Below, in pieces: positions 39,243 through 64,000 of a DNA stretch of 64,000 nt. Source of the DNA: a virus. The notes under the pieces were generated by a model that did no database searches, had not been told where the DNA came from, and saw nothing but the letters and a program-made list of their open reading frames with translations. The stretch lies in IMG/VR virus record IMGVR_UViG_3300038451_000147, positions 41,336 through 105,335 of that record, one strand, 5' to 3'. Positions within the stretch are counted from its first letter, which is position 1. Each line of letters begins with the position of its first letter. The translations under genes were made by a program, and so were the position numbers.

Positions 39243-40013
39243 CTACGACCAGATTACCCAGAGTGGCTGATTGTCGTTGGAGTAGACGATGGTTCCTGTC
39301 CTCTGTTCGCCTATAGCGTAGGGCGGGACGTTTGTGTAGTAGAGTCGTGGGTCTCCAACGATTATGAATGTGTCTCCACCTGCGGCTGTCGGTGCTACTC
39401 CGAATGTGCCAGTGCAGGTTATTATTGTTGCTGTATTCGATGCAATGATTAGTTGCAGTCCAATCGCGGGGCCAGTAAGGAACTTGATGTAGGCATTCGC
39501 CAAATAGTTCACTGGTAGTTTCAAAGGAGAAACAGTTACCGTTGCGTTTCCTGCGTTTGTTGAGGCTGAAGATACTCCTACCAGATTACCCATATCAGGA
39601 GTGTAAACTATCTCGACTCCACCCAATTGGATTGTCTGCTTTGGAACTTCTGTGCTCCAGAAGGCTGAACCACCCGGGCCGAGTTGCGACATTCCGCCAG
39701 CCGCAAGGCTCTCCACTGTTCCTATTGGAGTTACAATGAACGACTTTGATGCAGTAGCCGCGCTACTGTCTATCGCAGTGACAGTCTTAGTGCCATACCC
39801 TAAAGTGGCCATCGGAACTACGAAGGTTCCAGTCCAAGTGCCAGCATTGGCAATCGTTATCGTACTTGGCAGAACAGTTGCAAAGACATCCACACCACCA
39901 ATGGTGACTGCTGTTATTGTGGCCGCACCGCCACCTGTGTATCCTGCTCCTGTCATGGTGACAGTAAGACTACCCGCACCAGATGTTGGACTTAGCGTTA
40001 ATGTGGCTGTCAT
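39243..40013 (-). CDS. Ig-like virion decoration protein
   Basis: N-terminal TLSPTSG Ig-like domain; shares two modules with 42406. Confidence 0.65.
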   Translation of the reverse strand: MTATLTLSPTSGAGSLTVTMTGAGYTGGGAATITAVTIGGVDVFATVLPSTITIANAGTWTGTFVVPMATLGYGTKTVTAIDSSAATASKSFIVTPIGTVESLAAGGMSQLGPGGSAFWSTEVPKQTIQLGGVEIVYTPDMGNLVGVSSASTNAGNATVTVSPLKLPVNYLANAYIKFLTGPAIGLQLIIASNTATIITCTGTFGVAPTAAGGDTFIIVGDPRLYYTNVPPYAIGEQRTGTIVYSNDNQPLWVIWS

Positions 40014-41002: not shown

Positions 41003-41443
41003 ATGAGCAGTCAATGGACTATCTATCATGGAGACGGGACGCAAACAACCTGTCGTTCATGCGGAAAGAAAATATCATCGAAACCAACAGAATCATGTAA
41101 AGAGCCTAGACATATGGCTTGCTATGAAAGAAATGTAACTCAAATCAATAAGAATCGCAAAGAGGCTCAACTAGAGGCTTTGATTCATTACTCCGGCACA
41201 GACCCGCCTCAGTGTGCCAACCCCTTCGGAGAGCATAAAGAACCATACACCACTATTCTTGCTCTACAGTTAGACCACATCAAAGGTAATGGAGCAAAAT
41301 TTAGACGCAGACATCCATTCCAAGTCGGAAAGTCTTTAGCACTGTGGCTTAGAAAGCGTCATTGGCCAAAAGGGTATCGCGTGCTTTGTGCAAATTGTCA
41401 ATGTATAGCGAGAGAGCGTTTAGGTAATGATGGAAGAAAGTAG
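41003..41443 (+). CDS. HNH-type endonuclease, paralogue of 24980..25324
   Basis: PPQCANPFGEH..LQLDHIKGNGA..YRVLCANCQ. Confidence 0.7.
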   Translation: MSSQWTIYHGDGTQTTCRSCGKKISSKPTESCKEPRHMACYERNVTQINKNRKEAQLEALIHYSGTDPPQCANPFGEHKEPYTTILALQLDHIKGNGAKFRRRHPFQVGKSLALWLRKRHWPKGYRVLCANCQCIARERLGNDGRK

Positions 41444-49671: not shown

Positions 49672-50794
49672 CATTCTTACCGAAATCTCCATGTGCAGGA
49701 CTTGGGCTAGGACGCGACCATCCGAACCTGTCCGACCCCATCCGAACCCAAGGGACTCCTACCCCTACCTAGTAGGACTATCCCTACCAATAGTTACTAC
49801 TGCCCCTACTGAACAGTCCTTTATATATGACCTGCAACTCGACTGAACGCCTCTTTATAAGTAGTCTGTCAAAACTTCAGATGTGCAGAATTAGGAGTAG
49901 GAAACCACTACTCAAAAGTAAGGCCAGTCAAAAGTCTTGGATTCTTGCCTACTCTTACCCCTATTAGATGCTCATACCCCTATTAGTGTTCGGTGAGGGG
50001 TATACCCTATCCTATACCCATCCGGCCCACTTCCACAACTCGACAGGATGCTGGATGCCGAGCCGCCAGAGATACTCCATCAAGTCCCAATCCATTCTAC
50101 TTCTTCTAGGGTCTTTACCCATCCCACTACCATTAGGGGCTGTGCCATTATAAAGGTTGTGTGTGGCTGTGCTATCCTAGCCGGAAGGCTGGAGTGGAAG
50201 AGGGGGTGTCCCTATTAAGAATGCTTACTGGCCGTTTTCAGTGGAAACACTGGCCGCCCTAATAAGGGGTGCGAAGGGTATATATGGGGGTATACCCTCT
50301 TGGCCATGATGGGCAACATGGCTCGACTGGAAACAGGGGTCGGCTTTATAAGGGTTGGGGCGCGGTTCCAGTGGAAGCGTAGGTCTTTATAAGGAACCAC
50401 CAGTGCTTCCAGTGCAAACGAACCCATTAGGGGTTTTCATTCTTGGCTCTAGATGGGGCGGCCTCTCATGCCATCCTTATAGTGACAGGTGCAAACGAGT
50501 GGAACCTAAGTGATAGATTCTATGTAGGACTATACCCAGAAGTGGTAATCCTTACAGGATATACCCTATACCCCTGTCAGGATTTACCAAGTTAGAAGAG
50601 GACGTTATGAGGAAGGCGTTTGCATCCCACCGTCAATTCTGCAACCCCACTGCAACCCCAAGTTCCATCGGTCTGCATCGGAAATGGCCCTGCTCTATAT
50701 AAAGTTCTGAGTAGGGTGAGGGGAGTGCGGGGAGAGGGGAACTAGGGGAAAGGACAGGAAGGGATATATGGTATACCCACCTACCCTAGTGGCA
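49672..50794. other. Repeat-rich non-coding region: candidate origin, genome terminus or packaging region
   Basis: No credible ORF for 1.1 kb; TATACCC/GGGTATACCC, CCCTATTA, CCATCCGAACC x2, TGCAACCCCA x2; transcription diverges from it. Confidence 0.6.
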
Positions 50795-53700
50795 ATGATG
50801 AAACAAACCCCAAGGGTAGAACCGGAAGCCACACAGATGAAGGGCGACATTGTTTCAGCCCTATATCTGGATGGCAAGGAATCGGAAGGGGTCTACGTTA
50901 CAGGACGGGACTCCAATAACTGCCGACCTACAGCGTGGGTCAACCTACTTTCATTCGACAGCCACACAATGCCCAGACTCGAAACACTCGGCTGGCACCT
51001 AATCACAGCCGGAGCCGTCAAGCGCAAGGTTCGCCTAGTCCTCTCTTACGAAGGGGTGGCTCAACAGTGACCGCGCCCCACTTCCTAATCGCAGTCCGTG
51101 AGTTGGGCATCCGAATCGGTGGGCCGACTTCGGTTAGAAGGGAAGGCATCGCAGACATCGCAAGGGCCAAGAACTTCCAAGAGGCAGAGAGCAAGGCACT
51201 GGCAAGGTTCGCCAAGAAGTGGAAGACAAACGTGGTTTGTCTCCAAGTCACTGAGGCACGACTGGCAGTAAGGCCAGAGCCAGAAGTCCTATACGACTCA
51301 GCCAAGGCCGATAAGGTAAACGCGGCCTATTCGCTGGCATTCGCAAGACTGCACATCCCCACGACTTACGCATTCGACGCGACCGCGCCAACCTTTAGGA
51401 GTCTAGCCTAGACTTGTTAGCCGCATATTACAAGGCTAAGAAGGACTTGAAGGCCACAGTGGGCCAACCCCTAAGATACGGCGAAACCTCAATGTTCGGG
51501 GCTGAGTTCAAGGCAGACGGCCAATTCTGCGTAGTGGGGCCAAGCGAACATCAGCGTAAGTGGTATGCCACCGTGTCCATGAAAAACGGACTCATCGAGA
51601 AGGTCTCCTAGACTTGGCACTTCACTTCGACAGACGCGGAATGTATAAGGGAACCAACCCACTGGCATCAGCCTTCCCGATAATCACAGACCCAAGCCAA
51701 TCAGCCACCGAGACCCAGACCTTCCAAGCCTTGAGGGAGAACGTGAACGCCTACAGAGGAATCAAGGTCTGGAAGCGTGAGCGCAAAGCCCGAAGAGACA
51801 AGGGAATCAAGCGAGTCACCACAACCTACACGCCTAAGTCAGTGAAGACCACGACACCCAAGATTGAACGCAAGGCAGAGCCAGTCACCCTTTACCCCAA
51901 GGACGGGGAGCCAATTACTTACCTTCCCACTGAGCCATCAAGTTATGCAGACATCGCCCAAGCACTGGCGCAAGCCATCAAGGAATCGGGGATAGCCTAG
52001 ACTTGACTCCAAAGTTTTGTCTCGTAGACGGTCTTCAATTACGCCAAGACAAAATGCTTTCGCAACCAACGCCTTCAGCGCGTCATTATAAATTGAGTTG
52101 TCCAAAAGGCCACGTTTACACATTATCAATCGAGAGCGAAGACGACCTTGATTATCTCACTTACATATTTGAACTTGAGTGGTGGGAACGCCCATCAGAC
52201 TGGAAGGGAAATATGAGAAACATTCGCGCACCAATAAGAGCATTCAAAGAGACAGGGAGCGACTAGACTTGTTCAAGATAACAAGGTGGGTCACAACGAA
52301 GAAAGAGGCAGACGACTTGAGCCAGTGGATTCACGATATAGACGGCATCTGGCCGGAAGTCACAAAAGAGGCAGACTAGACTTGGTTAGCAAGACCTTCC
52401 GTAAGAAGAGCATGAAGACCAAGAACGGCACGACCATAACCTTCGAGTATGAGGACGGATTCATAAACCGCGCCCTAATCATAATGACCTTCCCTTGTGG
52501 GAATCAGCAATACTTCAGACTCGTTCCAGACGGAAAAGAGAACTGGTAGACTTGGCAAAAGACAATAAGCCACTGGAAAAGGCAATAGAGGCCCAAGTTT
52601 GGGAGCGAGAGTTAGATAATCTGGCTCAACTTGTGAGAGACTTGGCAGACGGAATCAGCACAGAGAATGCAACAGAAAAGCGAGACCCTTCTAATCCTAC
52701 ACAAGGAGAGACCTAGACATGGAAATTCGCATCCCCGAAATAGACCTTCAAAAATTCGAGTGGCTTATGGGCGAAACAACAGAGTTCAATGTAGGAGTGA
52801 ACGTAGACAAACACAAGACCCACATCATGCGAGACAACCGAACCATTAGCCTAAGTGTTTGCCTCTTCCCTTACCACCCAATAGAGCAATGCAGACAATA
52901 CCGAAGAATCGGGAAGGGACTCAACCCAAGGCAGAAGACACGCGCCCTCAATGCCGTGTGTTTCCACGGTCACAAGGCATTCATGCAAGCACTCTTCCAG
53001 AACATTCCCAAGGCCAGAATCAGGTCACTCATGACAGACAGAGTTAGGACTAAGTGGATGGACGCAGAGAACTTCAAACAGGTCGCGCAAGACATCGAAT
53101 CTGTGAACGTGGGGTCACTAATGGAGTCTACAGTCTACAGCGAAACGTGTGAATGTGGGAGAGTCTAGACTTGGCAAACGAACTTTCAGACAGATATCTC
53201 ACTTTCCTAAAGGCAGAGCGCGAGAGACTAAAAGCAAAATTGGAATCCCTTGAGAGAGGAATCAAAATCGTAGAGACCGACGACTTATGCACTTGCCAAC
53301 TTGACGGAAAAGGTGAGGCGTGTCCAGTTCATGGAGACATTAGACTTGTCTAACAATCTTAGACTCACCTTACTCAGAGCCAGCCTTTACGCCTTGACTC
53401 ACAGCGCACTGAAGCGTGGGTGGCTTCGGGCTTCGGCCTACCTATTCCGAGAGGCATTCGGGGATTAGACTTGGGCCAAAAGGAAATACTTGAGGAAGCA
53501 TTGCGACTCAAAGCAGAAGGTCTTTACAAGACAATAGAAGAGAGAGCCAACGAGTCAGGTTATCAAGTGGTTAGAACAGCCACCACAACCTACTTAGTAA
53601 AGAGGAAGACCAAGGCCAAGAAAACTGAAACCTTCTGGCACTTCCAGCCAGCCGAGCAACTAGGGAGACACATGGGCCTAATCGAAGTCTACGGAGACAT

Positions 53701-55077
53701 GAGAAGGTCGGATGGCATTGCGACAACTCTCACCCTTATCTCGCCAGACGGTTACATTCCTCACACAACTCTAGACGAGTATTTCAAACAGGGTTGGATT
53801 ATCTCATTCGTTGGTACAGCCAAGTGTGGAGAAGACGGATTGCTTCCCTTCGTTCATCTTATGCTTGAAGAGGAATGTAAATAGACTTGGCCTTAAGATT
53901 TATGTCGTGTGAGTCTGCCCTAATCCTAGTCGGCCAAACAGAAGACGATAAGCCAATCTATGAGTGTGCATTCCATCATGAGATTTACGAACTGAGAGAC
54001 AGAGAATATCAGGAGATAACCCAGACTTGGCAATTCGACTAGTCGAACTTCACTTAGCACTAGACGTTTTCCAGACGGACTTCATGCGCAAGAATATCGA
54101 AGTCAAAATCTCCCTCAAAGAGAAGACCCTAGACATCACAACAGACAAGATTCTAGTGACTCCCACCGAAATCAGACAACTCTTGAAGAGGCCCACGCCT
54201 TGACTCGAAACGAGAACATTGCGGCAATCGTTGTGACTGGAATCTTCCTAGTCCTTGCAGTCTTCGCCATCCTAACCACATGGGGAGTCTTGCCTTGAGA
54301 AACGGAAGAGACCCCAGACAGAAGCGTATAGCAGTATTCGGAGAATGCCCTCAGACCTTCGGGTTTGAAGTCGTGACCCACACCTTGGCAACTCCCACCG
54401 ACTTAGCAATGACCAACTACCAGACGAATGAAGTTCGGGTCAATGCCTTACGAATCGCCCAACTTGGGGCCACTGCACACAAGAGATTCGGGTTTCCGAT
54501 TGAAGAGACCATCATTGACTTGCTCAGTGGAATTTCAGTCCATGAACTGATTCATCAACTTGAGAGGATAGACCACACAAGGAAGGATAAATGGAGCGTG
54601 GCAGACTTCTCTTCGGTGATGGAAGCAATGGGCCATCCATATGAGAAGCGCATCCGGTTCTATTACCGCAAACCCAAGCGTAAGGTTCATGAAATTGTGT
54701 GTGTGGACTTGGAAGGAATTAGCATGAATAGCGCAACGACAAACCGACAGCAATATATACACACGCGGAGAGACTAGCGGGCAATGAGAGTTCCGAAACA
54801 CGCGCTAATAGACAACTACAGTGGAAAAGACCTACAGGTTAGTGTGCATCGCTTCAAGGGGAGCGATGTTATCGTGGTTACAATCCACGACACTGAGATA
54901 GGCCAAGTCGGTGGACACACAACCGTAAAGGACGCGATAAAAAGCGGAGAGCGTTACGTCTCAATACCCTTTGAGACTTATGAGAAGGATTAGCATGACT
55001 CCACCCTTAGAGAGCCTAGACGAATTGAGAGAATTTGAGTATCACATCATGCTTCAGGATAAGGAGCCAAGTCCAGA
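50795..55077 (+). CDS. Array of ~18 small coupled ORFs, putative early/host-takeover genes (starts at 50795, 51067, 51414, 51614, 52003, 52269, 52382, 52552, 52719, 53171, 53346, 53471, 53887, 54027, 54200, 54295, 54784, 54996)
   Basis: Near gap-free tiling on one strand, mostly TTG starts after TAGAC; 54295..54777 has HELIH (HExxH). Confidence 0.65.
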
Positions 55078-56274
55078 TTGACGCTAACCTTAGACGATTA
55101 TTGTACCAATACCAACAATGACCCCACGCCAGAACCCATAACTCCATCAAAGCCTAGACTTGGGAAGTGGACGGTTGACCCAGACCAACGGACTAAGAAG
55201 GATTGGACTCCCTACTTGAGCGAGAAACTTGTGGTCTCACTTGAGTTGGAATACAACTTCAAGAATGGCGTGGAAACCGTAGTTACAAACGAGTTAGGAA
55301 GGGAAGTAGACAGACATAACACATTCGACCCTGTTTCAGAGACAGAAGTAGGAGTCCATGAAGGTGAGCATTCACGTTGTCCAGTATGCGGCTCTTCAGG
55401 ATGCTGGAAATGCGACCTACCGAAGACCATTCGCATTGTGAAACCCGATTGCACTATTCACGGAAGAGAGTTTATCGTTATCGGAAGTTCAATTCCAAGC
55501 GAAGAGTTTGTGAAGCGTCTTCCCATTGAGAACATCAAAAAGTATTTCGAGTCAGACAAAGAAGACTCGATGCACAGCCACATTCTGATTCCGGGCAACA
55601 GCGAAGAGATTCCAGTCTCAATAGGTCAGAATACTTGGCAACTCTTCCGAGCCTACTACCCCGCTTGGGCCTATATCTTCGGCAACTTCAAGGGTCACAT
55701 TCTAAGAGGGTATTGGGCCGTATGGAACGACTACCATTATGACGCGACAGACTTCGATTATTGGTGGAACGGAGACGACGACAGTGGCTCATCACATGAC
55801 ATCATTGTCAACACACCGAGACCAATAGCCAGACGGTACAAACATGGCCTAACCTTCGCTTCATGCCATGTAAACGGGTTTAACGAGAAGGTCTTCACGC
55901 ATTTTGACGTTGAAATACGGCAGACAGACGCAAGCCAAGACTTAGAGCAAATTGTGAGCGCGAGAGCCTTGAGCAAGGCTTTAGTCTTGAAAGGCGCACA
56001 ACTGGCGAATCATGGAGTCATTGACATTCCCGAAGACAGATGGGAGACCATCAAACCTGTAATAGAAGACATCAATCGCTCTCAAGGCGTGCGCTCCAGC
56101 ATTGATTCTACACTTGAGAGACGGCAAGGTAAGACAATGAGAGCAATGGCTAAAGACTTCTACAGAGAGATGGCTGACCTTCTCACGCCTTACGAACAGC
56201 ATTGTGTGAGGCATTGCATTGAGAGTCCGGTTCGGAAGAGACATCCTAACGTGAAGAGGGATTATTCAAATTGA
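55078..56274 (+). CDS. Putative amidoligase (COOH-NH2 ligase) 1 with Zn-ribbon insert
   Basis: SLELEY, CPVCGS..CW, DCTI.GREF, SMHSH, VEIR..D. Confidence 0.7.
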   Translation: MTLTLDDYCTNTNNDPTPEPITPSKPRLGKWTVDPDQRTKKDWTPYLSEKLVVSLELEYNFKNGVETVVTNELGREVDRHNTFDPVSETEVGVHEGEHSRCPVCGSSGCWKCDLPKTIRIVKPDCTIHGREFIVIGSSIPSEEFVKRLPIENIKKYFESDKEDSMHSHILIPGNSEEIPVSIGQNTWQLFRAYYPAWAYIFGNFKGHILRGYWAVWNDYHYDATDFDYWWNGDDDSGSSHDIIVNTPRPIARRYKHGLTFASCHVNGFNEKVFTHFDVEIRQTDASQDLEQIVSARALSKALVLKGAQLANHGVIDIPEDRWETIKPVIEDINRSQGVRSSIDSTLERRQGKTMRAMAKDFYREMADLLTPYEQHCVRHCIESPVRKRHPNVKRDYSN

Positions 56275-56716
56275 CCGAACCCATCAAGATTCCGAGCAAC
56301 TTCAGTGAAGTCTTAATGGCTGTGATTCTCCCCTACCACACGCCAGAGCCAGAGGAACTTCTGGAACTAATAAGCGAAACTGGCGTGGACGCTCCACAAG
56401 ACATAATAGTTGTGGAAGACGGCCAACTCAGTTATATCCCCTCTAAGGTGGTAGAGACTATATGACTAAACCAAAGGCCAAGACGAATGCAAAGTTACAA
56501 ACCGAAGCGATGCCCTTGAAACTCCCGAATGAAGGTAAGGAGTTCGTAGTCACGATTGCAGTGAGCCGGAAGCGACTTATCGAGTTCATCAGAACAGACA
56601 CAGTTTCACAGGGCGTTCTCGGAGTCCGAAGGATTGAAGAGCGAGACAGGGATGCCCTTGAGGTTAGCCAAAATGAAGACAGCCAAGACGACGACCGCGC
56701 CACTTGGAGCGAATAG
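56271..56716 (+). CDS. Two small ORFs (56271-56465, 56462-56716)
   Basis: Overlap-coupled between the two ligases. Confidence 0.5.
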
Positions 56717-56718
56717 AC

Positions 56719-58299
56719 ATGACTCTTCTCAATGAGACGGCTCCAATAGAGGAAGACCCCATTACCTACTCCGAACTTTTGACACATTCGACAAACGTAA
56801 TTGCGTGTCCCTATTGTGGTGAATCGGTTGAGATGCACTTTACAGGAGAAGACCCCGAGCATCACATTCACACGCCCAGAGACGACTTTCCAATCTGCCG
56901 AAGACTTTACGATTGCCCCGCACCTCATGCCGGACTCTTCTACGCCTATAAGAGCCTAATTGACGGGACGGTTTGGAAGACAGTGACCGTGAGACAGGGA
57001 GCCACCGAGAAAGTAGACGACATGGAAGAGATGATAGTCGGAATCGGTCACAAGAAAGCCTCATTGAAACCCGCATGGCGTTTCAGGACTAAGGACGCAA
57101 CGAAGGAAGACTTCACAGCCTACCTTAACAGGAATCTCGTTCTGGGCCTTGAGTTAGAATACGACTTCAAGAATCAGACACGCCCACCTTCAGAGCGTGA
57201 GATAACGGACTACTACGGATTAGCCCCAACTCCCTACCATCGCTTGCCCGAATGCCCGACTTGTGGGAGTATGGAATGCTGGAATCACCTACCAGAGAAT
57301 CTCATCCGAAGCATTGAGAAGGATGCCTCAATTACAGGGTGGGAGTTCGTTCTCTACGGAAGCAATCTTCCAAGTGAGGACTTCGTGAAACGCTTTCCAA
57401 TGGCGAAACTCAAGCGATACTTTATGCCAACAGAGTCAAACAGTCTTCACGTTCATGCGATGTTAGTCCACAACATAATCAAACTCCCGAATGTTATCGC
57501 CAAGAATATGTGGCAACTCTTTAGGTTCTATTACCCCGCTTGGGTGAATCTCTTCGGCAATTACAAAGCGAGTCAGGGATTCCTTCGGGTCTCACACGGT
57601 TCAATACATAACTTCGCTCACTTTCCCTATTACAAACGCTCTCCGTTCTCTCCGGCGTGGGCTGACGGACTCAACGAGCATAACAATAACACAGCAAGAG
57701 CCGGACTTTACTTCGTTGAAACGCCAGTTGGAAGACCATTGATGGACACATTCGACATTGAGTTTCGGACACCGGACTCGACTTTCGACATGGAACAGAT
57801 TGTTTCAGCGAGAGCCTTGATTAAGGCACTGATTCTAAGGGGCGCACAACTGGCGAACTTCGGACTTATCAGTGTCGAGACCGATAAGGAGACATGGGAG
57901 AAGGTGAAGAGCGTAATAGAGAAACTTGAGAAGCGGGCCGGAATCACCTTAGAAGATGAGGCATTCATGAGAGAGCATTCAATCCGGCTCTTGAAGGAAC
58001 TGGCCCCGTTCCTCTCAGAATTTGAGAGGGAATGCGTGAAGCATCTGATTGAGAATCCAGTAAGACAACGAGAGCCAGCACAACAGACCACCGAGAGGCT
58101 AGTCACCGAGACTTCACCTGTTGCGAAACAACTTCACAGAATCATTGCACTGGCTGAGATTGAATCTGCAAGTGAAGCGGATTGGGTCTCGAAGGTTGCG
58201 GCCCTCTTAGGAATCAACAATGAGCGAGTCATAAAAGCCTTGGCCGAACTGAAGGTATACTACGATGCCAACGCGCACAATATGGTTATAAACGGGTAG
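56719..58299 (+). CDS. Putative amidoligase (COOH-NH2 ligase) 2, paralogue of ligase 1
   Basis: GLELEY, DASITGWEF, SLHVH, IEFR.PDST; EQIVSARAL.KAL.L.GAQLAN shared with ligase 1. Confidence 0.75.
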   Translation: MTLLNETAPIEEDPITYSELLTHSTNVIACPYCGESVEMHFTGEDPEHHIHTPRDDFPICRRLYDCPAPHAGLFYAYKSLIDGTVWKTVTVRQGATEKVDDMEEMIVGIGHKKASLKPAWRFRTKDATKEDFTAYLNRNLVLGLELEYDFKNQTRPPSEREITDYYGLAPTPYHRLPECPTCGSMECWNHLPENLIRSIEKDASITGWEFVLYGSNLPSEDFVKRFPMAKLKRYFMPTESNSLHVHAMLVHNIIKLPNVIAKNMWQLFRFYYPAWVNLFGNYKASQGFLRVSHGSIHNFAHFPYYKRSPFSPAWADGLNEHNNNTARAGLYFVETPVGRPLMDTFDIEFRTPDSTFDMEQIVSARALIKALILRGAQLANFGLISVETDKETWEKVKSVIEKLEKRAGITLEDEAFMREHSIRLLKELAPFLSEFERECVKHLIENPVRQREPAQQTTERLVTETSPVAKQLHRIIALAEIESASEADWVSKVAALLGINNERVIKALAELKVYYDANAHNMVING

Positions 58300-58314
58300 G
58301 AGAAGGGGTAGACC

Positions 58315-59946
58315 ATGTGTAGAATGGCATTAGTAATTGGGAAGGACAAGGCTCTTCAGAGTTTCGAGTTGGCTTTCAAGTCAGCATGGGCTGACATGAA
58401 TAACGATGGCGTAGGTTGCTTCTGGCGAGACTACCCGATTTACAAGACAGGTGAAGAGAAGCACTTGGCTCGATTCGTAGAGAGCAAAGACATGGCCCGA
58501 CTTGAGCGAACTTATGACCGGATGCTCATTCACTTCCGCAAAGCCACAAAGGGCGTAGGGACTCATCCGTTCATCTGCCGAGACAGACAGGACTTGAAAA
58601 GCGGAGACTGGCTTCTGGTTCACAATGGATGCGTTCAGGATGCACACGCAAGAGAGGTCTTGAAACCGAAACACATTCTCACAACTGAGATTGACAGCGA
58701 AGTTTTCATTCACATCTGGGCTGAGATTGACGAATCGAATCTAGAGAAGAGAGCTAAGAAGTTTGGCGAAGCGGCAGAGAAATTGAACATCACAGGATGG
58801 GCTAATCTCATCTTCTATAACTTCATTACAGACGAATGGGTTGCGCTGGCTGAATCTTCGCTTGGAATCTCGAAGACAAAGGACGGGAATATTGTCGTGG
58901 TCTCTTCAGACAGAGCGTGGTTAGACGATTCGCAAGCCAAGAAACTAGGAATCAAATACGAAGAGTTGCCTTACAGAGCAATCGCCTACGGCAAAGGAAC
59001 GTCTTACAAAACCAAGGAGAGGGTTTGGGGAGTAAAGGGCCAGACCATGATAACATCCTACTACCGACCTGATGGCAACGGAACCTACCGTAAGGTCTTC
59101 CCAGACGAAGACGACTGGACAGGGTACCCAGAGTCATGGGAGCCACAACAGGGCGTGATGCCATCTGAATTTGGGAAGGGCAAAGGGTTCTCAACTAAGA
59201 ACTTCAACAAGGCAATCATAAACGGGGCGCGTTGGGATGTAAAAATGAGGGCAATGGTAGACAAGAAGGGCCGACCCTTAGACTTTGAGACCTACAGCGA
59301 CCCTTCAGACCATGAGTTCGTTCCGTCTGGCTCGAAAGACGAATCAGGATTAGCCGTTTGCGATGTGTGCATGAATAGCCTACCCTACCACAACATTCTG
59401 AAGGAACTAACACGGAGCCAAGCCATTAATCGAGCCATTGAAGAGAGGGGAGACCCAGACAAGTGGGATAGGAGACACCCTTACACAAGAGACCTAGATT
59501 CTCCTACCTTGAAGTGTATGTGTGGACTTACATCAAGTTACAGCGTTATCCACATGGCCCACATATTCAAGGCTCTAGGTGGGAGCGACTACTGCATGGA
59601 TTGTGGACAAAACAGGGCAGTCGGCAATCACAAAGAGGAAGTTCCAGAGGGCCACTTCTACCGAGAGATGAAAGTGGAAGATGAACTGAAAAACGGGCAA
59701 AGGAAATTCGTGAACACAGGACATTGCATCCGATGTGGACTCGCAGAAGAGAAGCATCTGATGAACGACTTGGCCCACAAGAACCGTGAAGTGGTAGTCG
59801 TAAAACAGAGGCCGATGGGTTGCGATTGCAGACCCCAAGCCAGAATGATATGCTCGGTTCATCACAAGCAAGGTTTCAGAAGTTTCGACCAGAACGGAAT
59901 GCTAGTAAAAGAACAGGTCATTGAGTTCTCAATGGGAAATAACTAA
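58315..59946 (+). CDS. Class II (Ntn) glutamine amidotransferase with C-terminal Cys/His repeats
   Basis: N-terminal MC, DG.G, HFRKAT, THPF, HNG, DSE. Confidence 0.85.
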   Translation: MCRMALVIGKDKALQSFELAFKSAWADMNNDGVGCFWRDYPIYKTGEEKHLARFVESKDMARLERTYDRMLIHFRKATKGVGTHPFICRDRQDLKSGDWLLVHNGCVQDAHAREVLKPKHILTTEIDSEVFIHIWAEIDESNLEKRAKKFGEAAEKLNITGWANLIFYNFITDEWVALAESSLGISKTKDGNIVVVSSDRAWLDDSQAKKLGIKYEELPYRAIAYGKGTSYKTKERVWGVKGQTMITSYYRPDGNGTYRKVFPDEDDWTGYPESWEPQQGVMPSEFGKGKGFSTKNFNKAIINGARWDVKMRAMVDKKGRPLDFETYSDPSDHEFVPSGSKDESGLAVCDVCMNSLPYHNILKELTRSQAINRAIEERGDPDKWDRRHPYTRDLDSPTLKCMCGLTSSYSVIHMAHIFKALGGSDYCMDCGQNRAVGNHKEEVPEGHFYREMKVEDELKNGQRKFVNTGHCIRCGLAEEKHLMNDLAHKNREVVVVKQRPMGCDCRPQARMICSVHHKQGFRSFDQNGMLVKEQVIEFSMGNN

Positions 59947-59947
59947 C

Positions 59948-60595
59948 TTGTCTTACTCTACAGACCACATCCCAATTAAGAAGACGGGCCAAGACGAGAG
60001 CAAGATTGCGAAGGGCATCAAGATAAAGGAGAACGACACGAAGATTCGGATTAGTGGAGCAGTCATTCGAGTCGAAGTTGCGCCTAGAAAATCGGGTTAC
60101 GGCAACGACTATAAGTTGAAGGTCTGGCTTCCGAACTTCACAGAGTTTGAACTGAACGAGAAGTCCGGCAATTATGTGACCTTCACCCAATTCATGAACG
60201 CCCTAGTGGAAGCATCTACAGGTCAACTCCCTTCTAAGGGAGCAATGGAAATGGAAATCCACATTGAGAACGGATTTCCAATGAAGATTTTCAAGGGCGA
60301 AGTTGAGGCAAAGGAGAAGGTAGAAGTGAAGAATGCTAAAGACCCGAAGACTGAGCCAATCATTGCATTCGTGGAACCCAAGAAGGAAGAGACACCGAAA
60401 GAGGAAATAACTGAATGGAATCCAATCACACAGAAATACGAGCAGAAGACCACGACTAAGGCACTGGTTCTGAAGGGCAAGAACAAGGAAGACGAAGCGG
60501 ATGAGGACAGGACGGTTCTCATTGACTTGCGAGACCCGAACAGCACAGACCTTTCAGAGATTGAAAAACAATGGCACGAAAGGGGCTATTACTAG
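59948..60595 (+). CDS. Hypothetical protein
   Basis: TTG start directly after TAA-C. Confidence 0.6.
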   Translation: MSYSTDHIPIKKTGQDESKIAKGIKIKENDTKIRISGAVIRVEVAPRKSGYGNDYKLKVWLPNFTEFELNEKSGNYVTFTQFMNALVEASTGQLPSKGAMEMEIHIENGFPMKIFKGEVEAKEKVEVKNAKDPKTEPIIAFVEPKKEETPKEEITEWNPITQKYEQKTTTKALVLKGKNKEDEADEDRTVLIDLRDPNSTDLSEIEKQWHERGYY

Positions 60596-60596
60596 A

Positions 60597-61373
60597 ATGA
60601 TAGTCGTCTTTGTTGATTGTGGGGTCTCGAAGAGCCAGACACCGGAACGGATTGTCCAGAGGCTTGAAGAGGACGGGCTGAAGGTCGTGAGGAATCCACG
60701 AAGTCCACCGAGCGAAGACTACGTTGTGATTCGTTGGGGTTCAACTAGATTCCCAGAGTTAGATGAGGGAGCCAAAGCAATCTTGAATCGGGCCGAAGCA
60801 ATCCAAGGCAATCTCCACAAGGACAAGGCACACGCCAAGTTCCTAGAGGCCGGAGTAAGCGCACCCCTATTCTGGACAACATGGGAAGAGGCTAGAGTCA
60901 AGGCCAAGGAATTAGAATGTGACATCCTTCGGAGACGCAAGCACCACATTCAAGGGAAGGACATTCTCAAAGTCTCGCCAGACGAAGACCTACCAAGGGC
61001 TAGGAGAAGCGGATACTACGTCCAGTATCTTGAGAAGGACAGGGAGTTTAGACTTCACATCTTCCAAGACAGATGTATCGGACTAGCCGAGAAAAAGCCA
61101 GCAGAGAATCCGAACAAGGTTATCTGGAACTTCGAGAACGGATGGGAGTTGGTCTACTACGCGAAAGAGGAAAGGGAAGAGGCCGTTGCGAATTACAGAG
61201 AGATGGTGGCCGAATCGGTCAAGGCTTGCAAGGCTCTAGGTCTGGACTTCGGAGCCGTAGACCTAATCATGGTGAAGGACAAAGCCTACATTCTAGAGGC
61301 TAACACCGCACCCAAACTCAAGGACACCAATCGGTACGCCAAGAACTTCGAGAGATGGGTTGAGAACGCATGA
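60597..61373 (+). CDS. ATP-grasp ligase (RimK-like)
   Basis: IRWG, KDK, VQYL...REFRLH, WN...G, LGLDFGAVD, ILEANTAP. Confidence 0.9.
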   Translation: MIVVFVDCGVSKSQTPERIVQRLEEDGLKVVRNPRSPPSEDYVVIRWGSTRFPELDEGAKAILNRAEAIQGNLHKDKAHAKFLEAGVSAPLFWTTWEEARVKAKELECDILRRRKHHIQGKDILKVSPDEDLPRARRSGYYVQYLEKDREFRLHIFQDRCIGLAEKKPAENPNKVIWNFENGWELVYYAKEEREEAVANYREMVAESVKACKALGLDFGAVDLIMVKDKAYILEANTAPKLKDTNRYAKNFERWVENA

Positions 61374-61846
61374 GAATCCATCAAGCAACTAGAGCCATCA
61401 CAACTTACAAGAAGATGAAGGTGAAGACGACTTCATTGCCTTGCAGAGTCATTGAGGCGCAACGGCTCATTAATGTAGTAAGAGACGGGACAATGGTTCA
61501 GCAGTCTTCAGTAAGGAAGATGATTGAGAAGTCGAAGTTGCTTGAGGTTATCTGCAAGTGTCAGGATGATGATTGCCCGTTCCTAGAGTTAGACAGTGAC
61601 AGAACTAGGTATTGCACTTGCGTAGATTGGGAATCAACTTCAAGTTGGGGAGCCTTACAATGCAAAGACCTAGAAGTGGTAGGGCATCAGAGCAATCGTG
61701 TCTTCAAGATAGGCGAAGGATTCCTACCCACTGAGAGCCATGAGCCAGACCCAAGACATCAAGGAACAGAGTTTGACTCTGATGCCTTTGAGGACTACCT
61801 AACCGATTGGCAATCAACGAATGACACAAGGGAGACAGGGAGATAG
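61370..61846 (+). CDS. Cys-rich hypothetical protein
   Basis: ATGA coupling; C.C....C...C.C cluster shared with the next ORF. Confidence 0.55.
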   Translation: MRIHQATRAITTYKKMKVKTTSLPCRVIEAQRLINVVRDGTMVQQSSVRKMIEKSKLLEVICKCQDDDCPFLELDSDRTRYCTCVDWESTSSWGALQCKDLEVVGHQSNRVFKIGEGFLPTESHEPDPRHQGTEFDSDAFEDYLTDWQSTNDTRETGR

Positions 61847-61849
61847 ACC

Positions 61850-62893
61850 ATGCCACTTAGACTAGACATTCCGATTCACTGCGCCGTGAAGGAAATCGAA
61901 CTCCTTCATGAAACCCTAGTGAAAGGGCTGGCAAGCAGAGACACCACAACTAACGAGAGATTGGTAAAACAACTGTATGAGACAGTATGCAACCTGAATC
62001 TCCAAGTCCGTTGTGTATGCTACGAACCAACGTGCCGCTATTGGGTGCATAACAATTGTCGGTGCAGTGGAGACCAACGATGCCTTGGTCTTGGTTATCT
62101 GACTCGACCCACAAGAGAACGTGAGAACGATGCACTAGAGGCTGAGATGAGGATGGCCGAAAGCGCATTAACAGAGAGCGACAAGGCCCGAAAGCCAGAC
62201 GAGCCGTTCATTGTCTGGAAGGTCAGAATCGCTTACAGGGTTAACCGCATGGCGAACCAGATTCACAACGCCCCAGAGAAGGGAGCCACACAATGGCATT
62301 ACGATAGTTGGAGAACCGAGAGTCCCATCACAAGGACTCACAACTTCAACGCATTCATCGTCAGAATCAGAGCGTTGCCACTGGAAGAGAGACCAACAGG
62401 GATGGACGTAACTCAAGTCGTGGGTTGCTCAGTCTGCAATTATGTTTACGTTGACATGGAATCCTTAGAGACCCATGTAGACAGACTGAGGTTCAACGGG
62501 CATTCGCTTCACAGCAATGCAGAGGCGATAACAGACACCACACATGAGCGCGTGAGAGAGACTTCGCCAGACTACAGACCACCGATTCCCACGTTTGAAC
62601 CTGACCCATATGGGATACCTATTCCACCGGAGCCAGAGGAAGGGCCAGAGTCTTCAGACGGCCATGAGGGATTGCTTGACCGTCTTTACAGAGAGGACGA
62701 AGAAGATGACGACCAATATAGAGAACGGCTCAGTGACTACATCAGAAACTACCACAATTCCAGCCACCTTTACGATGTGGTGGGTTGCTCCCACTGTGGA
62801 AGAATCTTTAGGAACGGGTTCGACTACTACGGACACGCGAGTTCTAACCATAACATGACTGCCCAAAGAGCGAGAGATAACTTAGTGCAGTGA
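61850..62893 (+). CDS. Protein with two C2H2-like fingers
   Basis: VVGCSVC..H..H and VVGCSHC..H..H. Confidence 0.6.
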   Translation: MPLRLDIPIHCAVKEIELLHETLVKGLASRDTTTNERLVKQLYETVCNLNLQVRCVCYEPTCRYWVHNNCRCSGDQRCLGLGYLTRPTRERENDALEAEMRMAESALTESDKARKPDEPFIVWKVRIAYRVNRMANQIHNAPEKGATQWHYDSWRTESPITRTHNFNAFIVRIRALPLEERPTGMDVTQVVGCSVCNYVYVDMESLETHVDRLRFNGHSLHSNAEAITDTTHERVRETSPDYRPPIPTFEPDPYGIPIPPEPEEGPESSDGHEGLLDRLYREDEEDDDQYRERLSDYIRNYHNSSHLYDVVGCSHCGRIFRNGFDYYGHASSNHNMTAQRARDNLVQ

Positions 62894-63233
62894 CTTGGAA
62901 TATGGCAACAAACTTTAAGAAAGGGCGCGAGAGAGGGGTGGAATCATGACCGAGACACTAGAAGGGAAGGTCGTGTTGAAAGACAAAATCACAGATGAAA
63001 CCTCAGATGGCGATGCCATCTACTCTGATGTCTACTACATTGGAGACCGAGAATTGGAAGACTTTATCTCGGACTTTGAGGGCAAGAGGGTCAGACTCAC
63101 AGTGGAGCCGATAGACTAATGGGAGTTCATCAGGACTACAGATGCGACATTTGCCAAGCCTTGGTCTCATCTAGCGAAGACCCTAGACACTTGGTAGGTT
63201 GTCCATACAAGAAGAGTTCGGTCTTAATTCAAC

Positions 63234-63632
63234 ATGACCTTAGACATCACGACACTTGGAATCCCGAATGGGACAGAATATAGCATGAGACTCAAGGTCG
63301 CAACATACTTGGGAGACGGGGTTCCTAACATGGGCGTTAAGAACAGAGGTAAGAAGATTGCTTACTTCTTTCCGTCCTCACATTGGCATTCCTACCTTGG
63401 CCATGCAACCGTCCAGATTATGACGAACTACATCAGCCACGAAAAGGCCCACCAACTCCTAGAGGAAATGGGAATGCACAAGGCAAACGACTGTATAGAC
63501 AACTTCACTTCGGTTCACTTCTTCCATCAAAAGTGTCACGCGAAAGATAGAATGAGACAGTTGGAGATTGCCGAGCCATCGGGACTTGAGAACCTCATAC
63601 TAGCTGTTGAGTCTAGGAGACGACACAGATGA
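63234..63632 (+). CDS. Putative zincin metallopeptidase-like protein
   Basis: ISHEKAHQLL (HExxH). Confidence 0.45.
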   Translation: MTLDITTLGIPNGTEYSMRLKVATYLGDGVPNMGVKNRGKKIAYFFPSSHWHSYLGHATVQIMTNYISHEKAHQLLEEMGMHKANDCIDNFTSVHFFHQKCHAKDRMRQLEIAEPSGLENLILAVESRRRHR

Positions 63633-63922
63633 GTCTAAAGACGATACCTACCGACACACGCAAGCCTTGGCAGATTCCTATCCCTTGTCCTCATTGTGGT
63701 TCTTGGCGCACCTACTGGCATGGCACATTGAAGTGTGCCAAATGCGGAAGCGACTTCAAGATAGACCGAAGTGCCGCTTATCCTAACACCTGCACAAAAT
63801 GTTGGCACACAAAGCATGGTGACAAGCCATGTGAAAAGTGCAATGAGAGTCTACGTTGGTGGAGAGACCAACTACTTCATGAGCGCATGAAATCAATCGG
63901 ATGCTCGGTGAAACTACCATGA
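63629..63922 (+). CDS. Zn-finger protein
   Basis: CPHCG..CAKCG..CTKC.H..CEKC. Confidence 0.55.
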   Translation: MSLKTIPTDTRKPWQIPIPCPHCGSWRTYWHGTLKCAKCGSDFKIDRSAAYPNTCTKCWHTKHGDKPCEKCNESLRWWRDQLLHERMKSIGCSVKLP

Positions 63923-64000
63923 CATCTGACCTGACAAGACGATGCAAGTCCTTCGCGCACATAAAGATGAGGACTCAGAATTGGTGGTTCGTAAGTTGGT

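Follow-up and report, generated by a model that had tools for sequence, protein, structure and literature searches.

A TAGACWTG octamer as a putative translational-coupling joint between unrelated small genes in the variable operon of a probably archaeal tailed virus

In the PeSL cassettes of T4-type phages, a sigma-70 early promoter and a stem-loop stand before small early genes. Conserved regulatory sequences also precede small early (anti-defence) genes in Sulfolobus viruses (Bhoobalan-Chitty et al. 2024, PMC11065993), and Cluster K mycobacteriophages carry start-associated sequences (SAS/ESAS), the function of which is not established (Pope et al. 2011, PMC3203893). At the level of translation, coupling by termination-reinitiation (TeRe) is known at overlapping and near-abutting genes in archaea and bacteria (Huber et al. 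2019, 2023; PMC6728339, PMC10666635), and it works at stop-start distances from −8 to ∼+10 nt in Haloferax and Escherichia coli (PMC10666635, PMC6728339). Here we describe an octamer, TAGACWTG, that recurs at the junctions of an array of small unrelated genes in the final 64 kb of a 105,335-bp IMG/VR virus record (IMGVR_UViG_3300038451_000147, positions 41,336 to 105,335; this 64,000-nt stretch is called the window, and genome coordinates equal window coordinates plus 41,335). Our literature searches returned no report of a fixed stop-spacer-TTG octamer in an archaeal virus.

The octamer occurs 17 times in the window when both strands are counted, as compared to 5.10 ± 2.35 times in shuffled sequences, and none of 100 shuffles reached 17. 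Thirteen copies lie on the plus strand between 51409 and 56721, and 11 of these fall within 2,481 nt (51409–53889), where ∼0.1 would be expected at the shuffle rate (Poisson P of order 10−19 by our own arithmetic). The clustering described in an earlier note on this DNA (eleven copies in 2.5 kb, with less than one expected) is thus borne out, and every octamer position and variant that it gave is present in the sequence (Table 1). Twelve of the 13 plus-strand copies directly precede an open reading frame (ORF), and a copy that had been set aside as background proved to be intragenic and out of frame. At 11 of the 13, as had been proposed, TAG ends an upstream ORF of 64–173 codons and the next ORF opens 2 nt later; the start at the octamers is TTG, except for two instances of ATG.

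When 21 non-redundant sites of this virus and its relatives were aligned, eight positions proved invariant; a G-rich Shine-Dalgarno (SD)-like run stood 7–10 nt before the T of TAG in 11 to 13 of the sites (upstream GGAG-type runs had been attributed to most copies), and GCA was weakly preferred after TTG. Nothing else was conserved between −30 and +27, and the 21 junctions carried no information content from −30 to −11. The octamer is not an artefact of assembly, since other samples, assembled independently, contain it too. AGACTTG is retained despite a displaced stop in four cases, before genes J and M of this virus (53341 and 54022, where the upstream stop does lie elsewhere, as claimed) and in two relatives (L021:7082–7091 and L031:∼6322), which supports the earlier suggestion that AGAC is more than part of a stop codon.

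Two side observations concern the motif. AGAC is 2–4 times more frequent than predicted from base composition on the sense (plus) strand of the whole early block, window 50000–64000 and genome 1–11400 (10–25 per kb), with a peak in the array (3.5–4-fold), and GTCT shows no enrichment. A tract of 270 nt of purine-rich non-coding DNA follows a 187-aa gene at genome 19740–20013 (minus strand, ∼21.3 kb before the window). In it TAGAC occurs four times, TAGAT once and CAGAC three times, and several of these stand behind AGGT/GGGC, so that it resembles a row of joints without starts; the tract and its two genes are missing from the relative G001. We considered this tract (19.7–20.0 kb) as a decoy for a TAGAC-binding factor and rejected the idea because several other stretches, some of them coding, are at least as dense in TAGAC (4 in 190 nt in the tract).

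The octamer is a local motif. Ten further copies elsewhere in the genome are as many as chance would give, and none lies at a gene junction. Same-strand tight junctions outside the array (92.7–98.1 kb) open with ATG in 45 cases, TTG in 8 and GTG in 2, and nearly all are ATGA or TAATG/TGATG, with some TTGA overlaps. Since the same ribosomes translate all of these genes, the octamer is not the host's general start context, and a general start context of virus or host was rejected; from inside the virus, this answers the refuting condition of the earlier note, a like context at the host's internal cistrons. TTG opens 16 of 27 operon genes and 2 of 38 promoter-led genes (our own start assignments; starts outside the array were taken from a simple in-house caller).

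Homology begins at the TTG-encoded residue in A, B and E and in X, P and Q of close relatives, that is, in every cassette with a homologue. Throughout its 65 residues, cassette A shares ∼70% identity with the hypothetical protein gp86 of the Tunturiibacter (Acidobacteria) phage Tunturi_1; the ATG of gp86 aligns with the TTG of A, and the gp86 junction in that phage is an ordinary ATGA with a GGAGG site. Gene H starts with ATG in this virus (labelled G000 in the comparisons) and with TTG at the same position, after TAA-A, in L020. These alignments support TTG as the real start of the cassettes. The junction of X' is TTGA in G001, and that of R is TTGA in G000 and the octamer in G001; because the A, X' and R junctions differ between genomes, the type of junction belongs to the array and not to the gene. 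Three other accounts of the stop and start codons were tried and rejected: recoding of the stop or a suppressor tRNA (a tRNA search of the G000 genome found none, and TAG ends 66 of its 165 predicted genes), cassette fusion by programmed −1 frameshifting (slippery sites are absent, and the frames upstream of the starts stay open only for as long as chance would give) and an antisense partner RNA (five reverse-strand octamers all lie inside coding regions).

From the box at 50695 to position 64000, no further TATA-like box was found on the plus strand, so the array is predicted to be part of one long operon. Its order is a promoter at ∼50695, ORF0, gene F, the cassettes and then a conserved block of two amidoligase-like paralogues, a GATase-like gene and an ATP-grasp gene (Table 1). 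Internal promoters, for which an archaeal TATA box would be expected ∼26–30 nt before the transcript start, were rejected since the junctions show neither a TATA-like box nor conservation from −30 to −11, though 38 other genes have a box. The thirteen proteins A to M (36–149 aa) have no similarity to each other, which rules out tandem duplication of a gene together with its junction. A Pfam scan of A to M gave no hits, and A is the only cassette with a family match (phrog_37117, E 7e-21). RNA folding showed no common hairpin, the octamer having a mean unpaired probability of 0.445 as compared to 0.483 ± 0.19 at random positions; with no common stem and an intergenic space of 2 nt, attC- or PeSL-like hairpins were also rejected. 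No integrase was found among ∼40 proteins scanned (neighbours and part of the relatives' ORFs), and protein scans recognised no nuclease gene or domain beside the array.

Table 1. The operon, its genes and its joints, in window coordinates
Feature	Position	Strand	Remark
Last TATA-like box before the operon	50695..50703	+	box scan
ORF0, first operon gene	50768..51070 (start 50768 or 50795)	+	stop overlaps F start (GTGA); in L021 the ORF0/F junction is TAGACATG
Gene F, 114 aa	51067..51411	+	head of variable array in all relatives
Thirteen cassette genes A to M, unrelated, small	51414..54203	+	all TTG starts except 52719 (ATG)
Cassette A	51414..51611	+	
Cassette B	51614..52000	+	
Cassette C	52003..52266	+	
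Cassette D	52269..52379	+	
Cassette E	52382..52549	+	
Cassette G	52552..52716	+	
Cassette H	52719..53168	+	
Cassette I	53171..53353	+	
Cassette J	53346..53468	+	
Cassette K	53471..53884	+	
Cassette L	53887..54042	+	
Cassette M	54027..54203	+	
Octamer, junction F/A	51409..51416	+	
Octamer, junction A/B	51609..51616	+	
Octamer, junction B/C	51998..52005	+	left edge of C-D vs X swap
Octamer, junction C/D	52264..52271	+	
Octamer, junction D/E	52377..52384	+	right edge of C-D vs X swap
Octamer, junction E/G	52547..52554	+	
Octamer, ATG form, junction G/H	52714..52721	+	
Octamer, junction H/I	53166..53173	+	
Octamer before J	53341..53348	+	upstream gene ends 5 nt beyond, at 53353
Octamer, junction J/K	53466..53473	+	
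Octamer, junction K/L	53882..53889	+	
Variant CAGACTTG before M	54022..54029	+	upstream stop at 54042
Octamer copy, intragenic, out of frame	55155..55162	+	background or relic
Octamer, ATG form, before 526-aa amidoligase-like gene	56714..56721	+	TAGACATG; orthologous junction in L019 TAGATG
Variant TAGACCATG before GATase-like gene	58309..58317	+	orthologues TAGATG (G001), TAAATG (L020)
Variant TAGACCATG before 347-aa gene	61844..61852	+	retained in L019

Relatives were gathered with the amidoligase paralogues (A1) and F (A3) as queries, and queries with alignments A5 and A6 returned no further loci; the set is small and partly from related samples. It comprises G001/L032 (41–47% aa identity, 107–111 kb records), L020/L030 (50–56% aa, a 91-kb contig), L031 (F 42% aa, a 36-kb contig) and the close relatives L021, L029, L019, L022, L028 and L026 (72–87% nt). 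Across these ∼six lineages a variable array occupies the same slot after F and ends before homologues either of the 165-aa gene R (54280/54295–54777) or of the amidoligases. The arrays of G001, L020, L021, L022/L028 and L031 hold mostly different genes in that slot. The same octamer joins unrelated genes in four lineages, and one lineage uses other tight stop-TTG forms. Seven octamers were counted in each of L021 and L028; in G001 three exact copies, together with TAGACTTTG and TAGACCATG, lie within 2 kb and join genes that are unrelated to the G000 set; and the joints of L031 are TAAGACTTG and TAGACTTG. L020 has a single octamer, its other junctions being TAA-A-TTG, TGA-T-TTG and two TTGA overlaps, from which it follows that the deeper common habit is an SD-like run with a TTG restart close against the stop. 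On these comparisons the exact octamer is the form fixed in most lineages.

Gene order shows how the cassettes move. It is F-A-B-C-D-E-G-H-I-J-K-L-M in G000, F-A-B-X-E-Y-P'-Q in L022/L028, F-Z-A-X-E-P-Q in L021, F-Z-A-B-X/Q in L029, F-A-B-X/Q in L026, F-a-b-c-X'-d-e-R' in G001 and F-H'-(B/R chimera)-..-M'-..-Q' in L020. Cassettes between octamers differ among relatives and are gained, lost or swapped as whole genes, as a comparison of gene order had been expected to reveal, and the rank of homologous cassettes varies (H stands eighth in G000 and directly after F in L020). For the whole-gene indels Z, B and Y and for the swap of C-D with X among close relatives, both edges lie within ∼3 nt of an octamer: identity is 88–100% up to the octamer on one side and the sequences are unrelated directly beyond it, and the direct repeat shared at the edges is 7–11 nt. 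An 810-nt deletion in L026 (6935–7010) and L029 (1734–1800) relative to L028:1483–2345, between 10-nt repeats CAGACCTTCC, has its ends inside X and Q; four genes were lost and an out-of-frame X-Q fusion was left, so microhomology recombination is active in the array. In L020:5824–6375, the first 29 residues of a 183-aa chimera match B of G000 (69%) and residues 58–181 match R (38%), and recombination thus also occurs inside array genes.

The joints of the variable block and those of the conserved block behave differently. Four junctions shared by G000 and L028 are unchanged though their flanks differ by ∼16%. In the conserved block the orthologous junctions drift, both those at 56714 and 58309 (Table 1) and that at 59946 (TAACTTG, with TAAATTG in L019), so AC is not needed for expression. 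As far as sequence comparison goes, the identity of the joints in the variable block appears best explained by repeated exchange (concerted evolution) or by a gene-specific factor, and not by a requirement of the ribosome. As side observations in the conserved block, the GATase-like gene starts Met-Cys in G000 (58315–58326), G001 and L020, as in class-II amidotransferases, and at L019:3515–3530 its ATG is ATC, so that the ORF can start only at a later Met without Cys.

Gene F was found in all relatives at the head of the array, and a profile search of 1.84 billion representative proteins recovered only 15 clusters of it, which makes the group a small one. Its model is a beta-beta-alpha-beta domain, with high confidence over residues 1–70. 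In structure it comes closest to eukaryotic eL20 and to the archaeal ribosomal protein LX (Z 8.7–7.2, Foldseek E of at least 0.04), a family limited to archaea and eukaryotes; at Z scores in a range that a common arrangement may also produce, the modelled resemblance is a lead only. The conserved C-terminal K-V-R of the F family is encoded by the SD-like AAGGTGAGG before the first joint.

The host of this virus is probably an archaeon. The genome encodes an HK97-type capsid protein, a portal and a large terminase, as in tailed viruses, and a family-B DNA polymerase adjoins a PriX primase-subunit domain (score above the Pfam cut-off). The viral uS2 is of the archaeal/eukaryotic type (TIGR01012, E 1.7e-34, vs 7e-12 with the bacterial model), and its closest ESM Atlas clusters come from archaea. 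Among the words of the genome, archaeal-type TATA boxes are the most strongly over-represented, and in 38 genes such a box begins 20–38 nt, mostly 28–33 nt, before the start codon; since 28–33 nt is the spacing of leaderless archaeal transcripts, we treated the host as an archaeon. Core proteins are only ∼25% identical to those of any sequenced phage, blastn of the region against known phages gave no match, the protein that the earlier note had annotated as major capsid protein recovered 0 loci in IMG/VR as a query, and a capsid alignment gave 0 matches among GTDB genomes. An 82-bp terminal repeat is on record for the genome.

G001 carries a tRNA-Lys(CTT) with an encoded CCA on the minus strand (L009:3926–4003, G001:10215–10292), in a non-coding hub ∼1 kb before F; the part from its anticodon arm to its T arm had no exact match in 185,579 GTDB genomes. 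Homologues of cassette A occur in Rhodobacter and Pseudomonas phages as well (phrog_37117), in addition to Tunturiibacter phages from Finnish soil, and the sequence relationships of A suggest gene flow between bacteriophages and this probably archaeal virus. A further class of promoter, present genome-wide, consists of a TTTATAAA box followed by CTCAAGACAAGGGG, TAG, 3–4 nt and ATG (for example at window 58286–58317; genome 5000–5028, and 18907–18940 and 90857–90890 on the minus strand). With the box ∼30 nt before the ATG, the G-run would fall upstream of the transcript start and would thus be promoter DNA or a regulator site, not an SD. Of the 38 promoter-led genes, ∼15 have a TAG in the 10 nt upstream of the start. 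The earlier note had also listed a weaker TAGA-N-ATG form; the instances at 40013 (minus strand), 42406 and 60597 exist, but those at 40013 and 42406 are a different thing, as each of these genes has a TATA box ∼33 nt upstream, as for leaderless transcripts.

We favour, at somewhat better than even confidence, the interpretation that the octamer is a portable translational-coupling joint, the uniformity of which also makes it the point of crossover between cassettes. An SD-like G-run near the end of one gene, the TAG, the AC spacer and a weak TTG would place a restart codon beside the previous stop, and each small gene would be translated by termination-reinitiation or by tightly coupled SD-assisted initiation, with no promoter of its own. 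The weak TTG would make a gene dependent on a ribosome arriving from its upstream neighbour, and the SD-like run could retain the small subunit across the 8-nt shift. With the same 7–11 nt at both ends of a cassette, whole genes could be added, removed or swapped with their neighbours' expression intact, and exchange at the joints would in turn keep the joints identical. The operon is presumably early, and the motif would drive the crossovers rather than survive them. Of the earlier proposals, a re-initiation element fits in that the genes are co-directional and promoterless, with a +2 gap, an upstream SD-like run and homology from the TTG, but not as a general Kozak-like context; a micro-homology joint for cassettes is directly supported by the gain, loss and swap of whole cassettes at the octamers, with the motif as their cause being our extrapolation.

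Several points weigh against this interpretation. Coupling is read from the anatomy of the junctions, and the distance from SD to start (∼11 nt) is above the usual optimum. L020, which is as close to G000 as G001 is, makes do with other stop-TTG forms, and a working operon thus does not depend on the exact octamer. The persistence of AGACTTG beside a displaced stop hints at recognition of AGAC beyond stop/restart geometry. Three of the breakpoints are intragenic (those at the 3' ends of E and of P and that of the X-Q fusion), and random recombination followed by selection for intact genes would also give breakpoints at boundaries. The host lineage was not recovered by the capsid or tRNA-Lys searches of GTDB.

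If the octamer (core AGACUUG) were instead an operator, a trans-acting factor would switch the small early genes at the level of translation; this factor could be a viral or host RNA-binding protein, such as the LX-like F with a UAGACUUG-containing junction as its putative RNA target, or ribosomes carrying the viral uS2. Such a role would suit a strand-specific, invariant motif that stays within one functional class of genes, as T4 RegA targets and Cluster K SAS do, as well as the AGACTTG kept where the stop is displaced, the 3.5–4-fold enrichment of AGAC on the sense strand of the array, the position of F at the head of every array, its best fold matches to an RNA-binding ribosomal protein, and a uS2 of archaeal type encoded by the virus. 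We nonetheless consider it unlikely, since F has a fold match of grey-zone quality (Z 7–9, Foldseek E of at least 0.04), L020 has F but mostly lacks the octamer, and orthologous junctions lose AC with the gene retained. The earlier note had also raised an RNA-processing mark, in which an endoribonuclease would cut the early polycistron at or near UAG/AC and leave monocistronic mRNAs with short leaders. T4 RegB, which cuts at GGAG in early messages, is a precedent, and near-leaderless products would suit a host in which most other viral genes appear leaderless; leaderless initiation normally needs AUG, however, and the sites here are UUG, no nuclease gene was recognised beside the array and no conserved structure exists at the octamer, which leaves this explanation quite improbable.

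Two further explanations were weighed. Were the octamer the core site of a dedicated, integron-like site-specific recombination system, its stop and start content would be secondary, and promoterless cassettes in one orientation behind one promoter, a 7–8 bp core at the boundaries and cassette-exact gain and loss would all be expected. There are, however, no attC-like inverted repeats, no spare intergenic DNA and no integrase among the scanned neighbours, the motif stands in fixed register with the reading frames, and deletions also occur at unrelated 10-nt repeats, so we regard such a system as very improbable. We find it barely plausible that the joints are a relic without present function, in which one junction was copied by tandem duplication or gene conversion and has not yet decayed. 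The dispensability of AC at orthologous junctions and the ability of L020 to do without the octamer are in keeping with a relic, but the unrelated cassettes exclude duplication of gene plus junction, the identical octamer joins different cassettes in lineages with core proteins 41–50% identical (G001, L031), and the four joints of G000 and L028 have outlasted the divergence of their flanks.

If the translational-coupling joint works as proposed, the array is a compact natural test bed for re-initiation in archaea, in which a fixed 8-nt signal with a weak TTG is repeated more than 10 times between different neighbours. It suggests that a virus may keep fast-turning small early genes, likely to serve host takeover or anti-defence, expressed without individual promoters, and that one signal can serve both coupled translation and the interchangeability of genes. 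In practice, where gene callers miss a small gene, the octamer shows its boundaries and its true TTG start, and it flags a hypervariable early module in a virus group without a cultured member. The pool of cassettes appears to cross the boundaries of host domains, given the resemblance of A to an Acidobacteria-phage protein.

Among known systems, TeRe coupling shares with the array co-directional genes on one (here predicted) transcript, a stop and start few nucleotides apart and an SD-like run in the upstream gene. The stop-start distance is +2 nt at 11 junctions, within the coupling range, and −8 or −16 at two. The common forms of TeRe are ATGA/TGATG with ATG starts that vary from pair to pair, whereas the array has a fixed TAG, a fixed +2 spacer and TTG, identical at 11–13 consecutive junctions, and other genes of the same virus use ATGA. 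The SAS of Cluster K are also short asymmetric motifs in one orientation at the starts of non-structural genes of unrelated families, conserved across subclusters, absent from the host-like background and often containing the upstream stop. They differ in being a 13-mer (GGGATAGGAGCCC) that includes the SD and stands 3–7 bp ahead of mostly ATG starts. Their sites spread over half of the genome, half of them with 17-bp inverted repeats, and their host is a mycobacterium rather than a probable archaeon. That 13-mer form is not found here: the core is 8 nt, comes after the weakly conserved SD part and includes the TTG start, and it is confined to one array, lacks inverted repeats and is tied to cassette turnover.

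Integrons resemble the array in their promoterless, unrelated small genes in the same orientation behind one promoter, which are gained, lost and reordered as units at a 7-bp boundary core. In the array, by contrast, attC hairpins and intergenic DNA are absent, the scanned proteins include no integrase, the boundary is a translation signal, and exchange presumably proceeds by homologous or microhomology recombination. A more speculative view, which we hold as doubtful, is that of an 'integrase-free integron', in which the 8-nt restart signal is the recombination joint of promoterless early cassettes, some of them from bacteriophages, and virus-modified ribosomes or the LX-like F and uS2 may read the signal, so that the cassettes would be translated together, as one block, under viral control. 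The control sequences of Sulfolobus viruses (transcription factor B recognition element and TATA box, BRE/TATA) and of PeSL cassettes are promoters that give each gene its own transcript, whereas the array element acts, if at all, at translation. They resemble the array in that highly similar short control sequences precede fast-evolving, unrelated small early genes, and such sequences can predict early or anti-defence genes.

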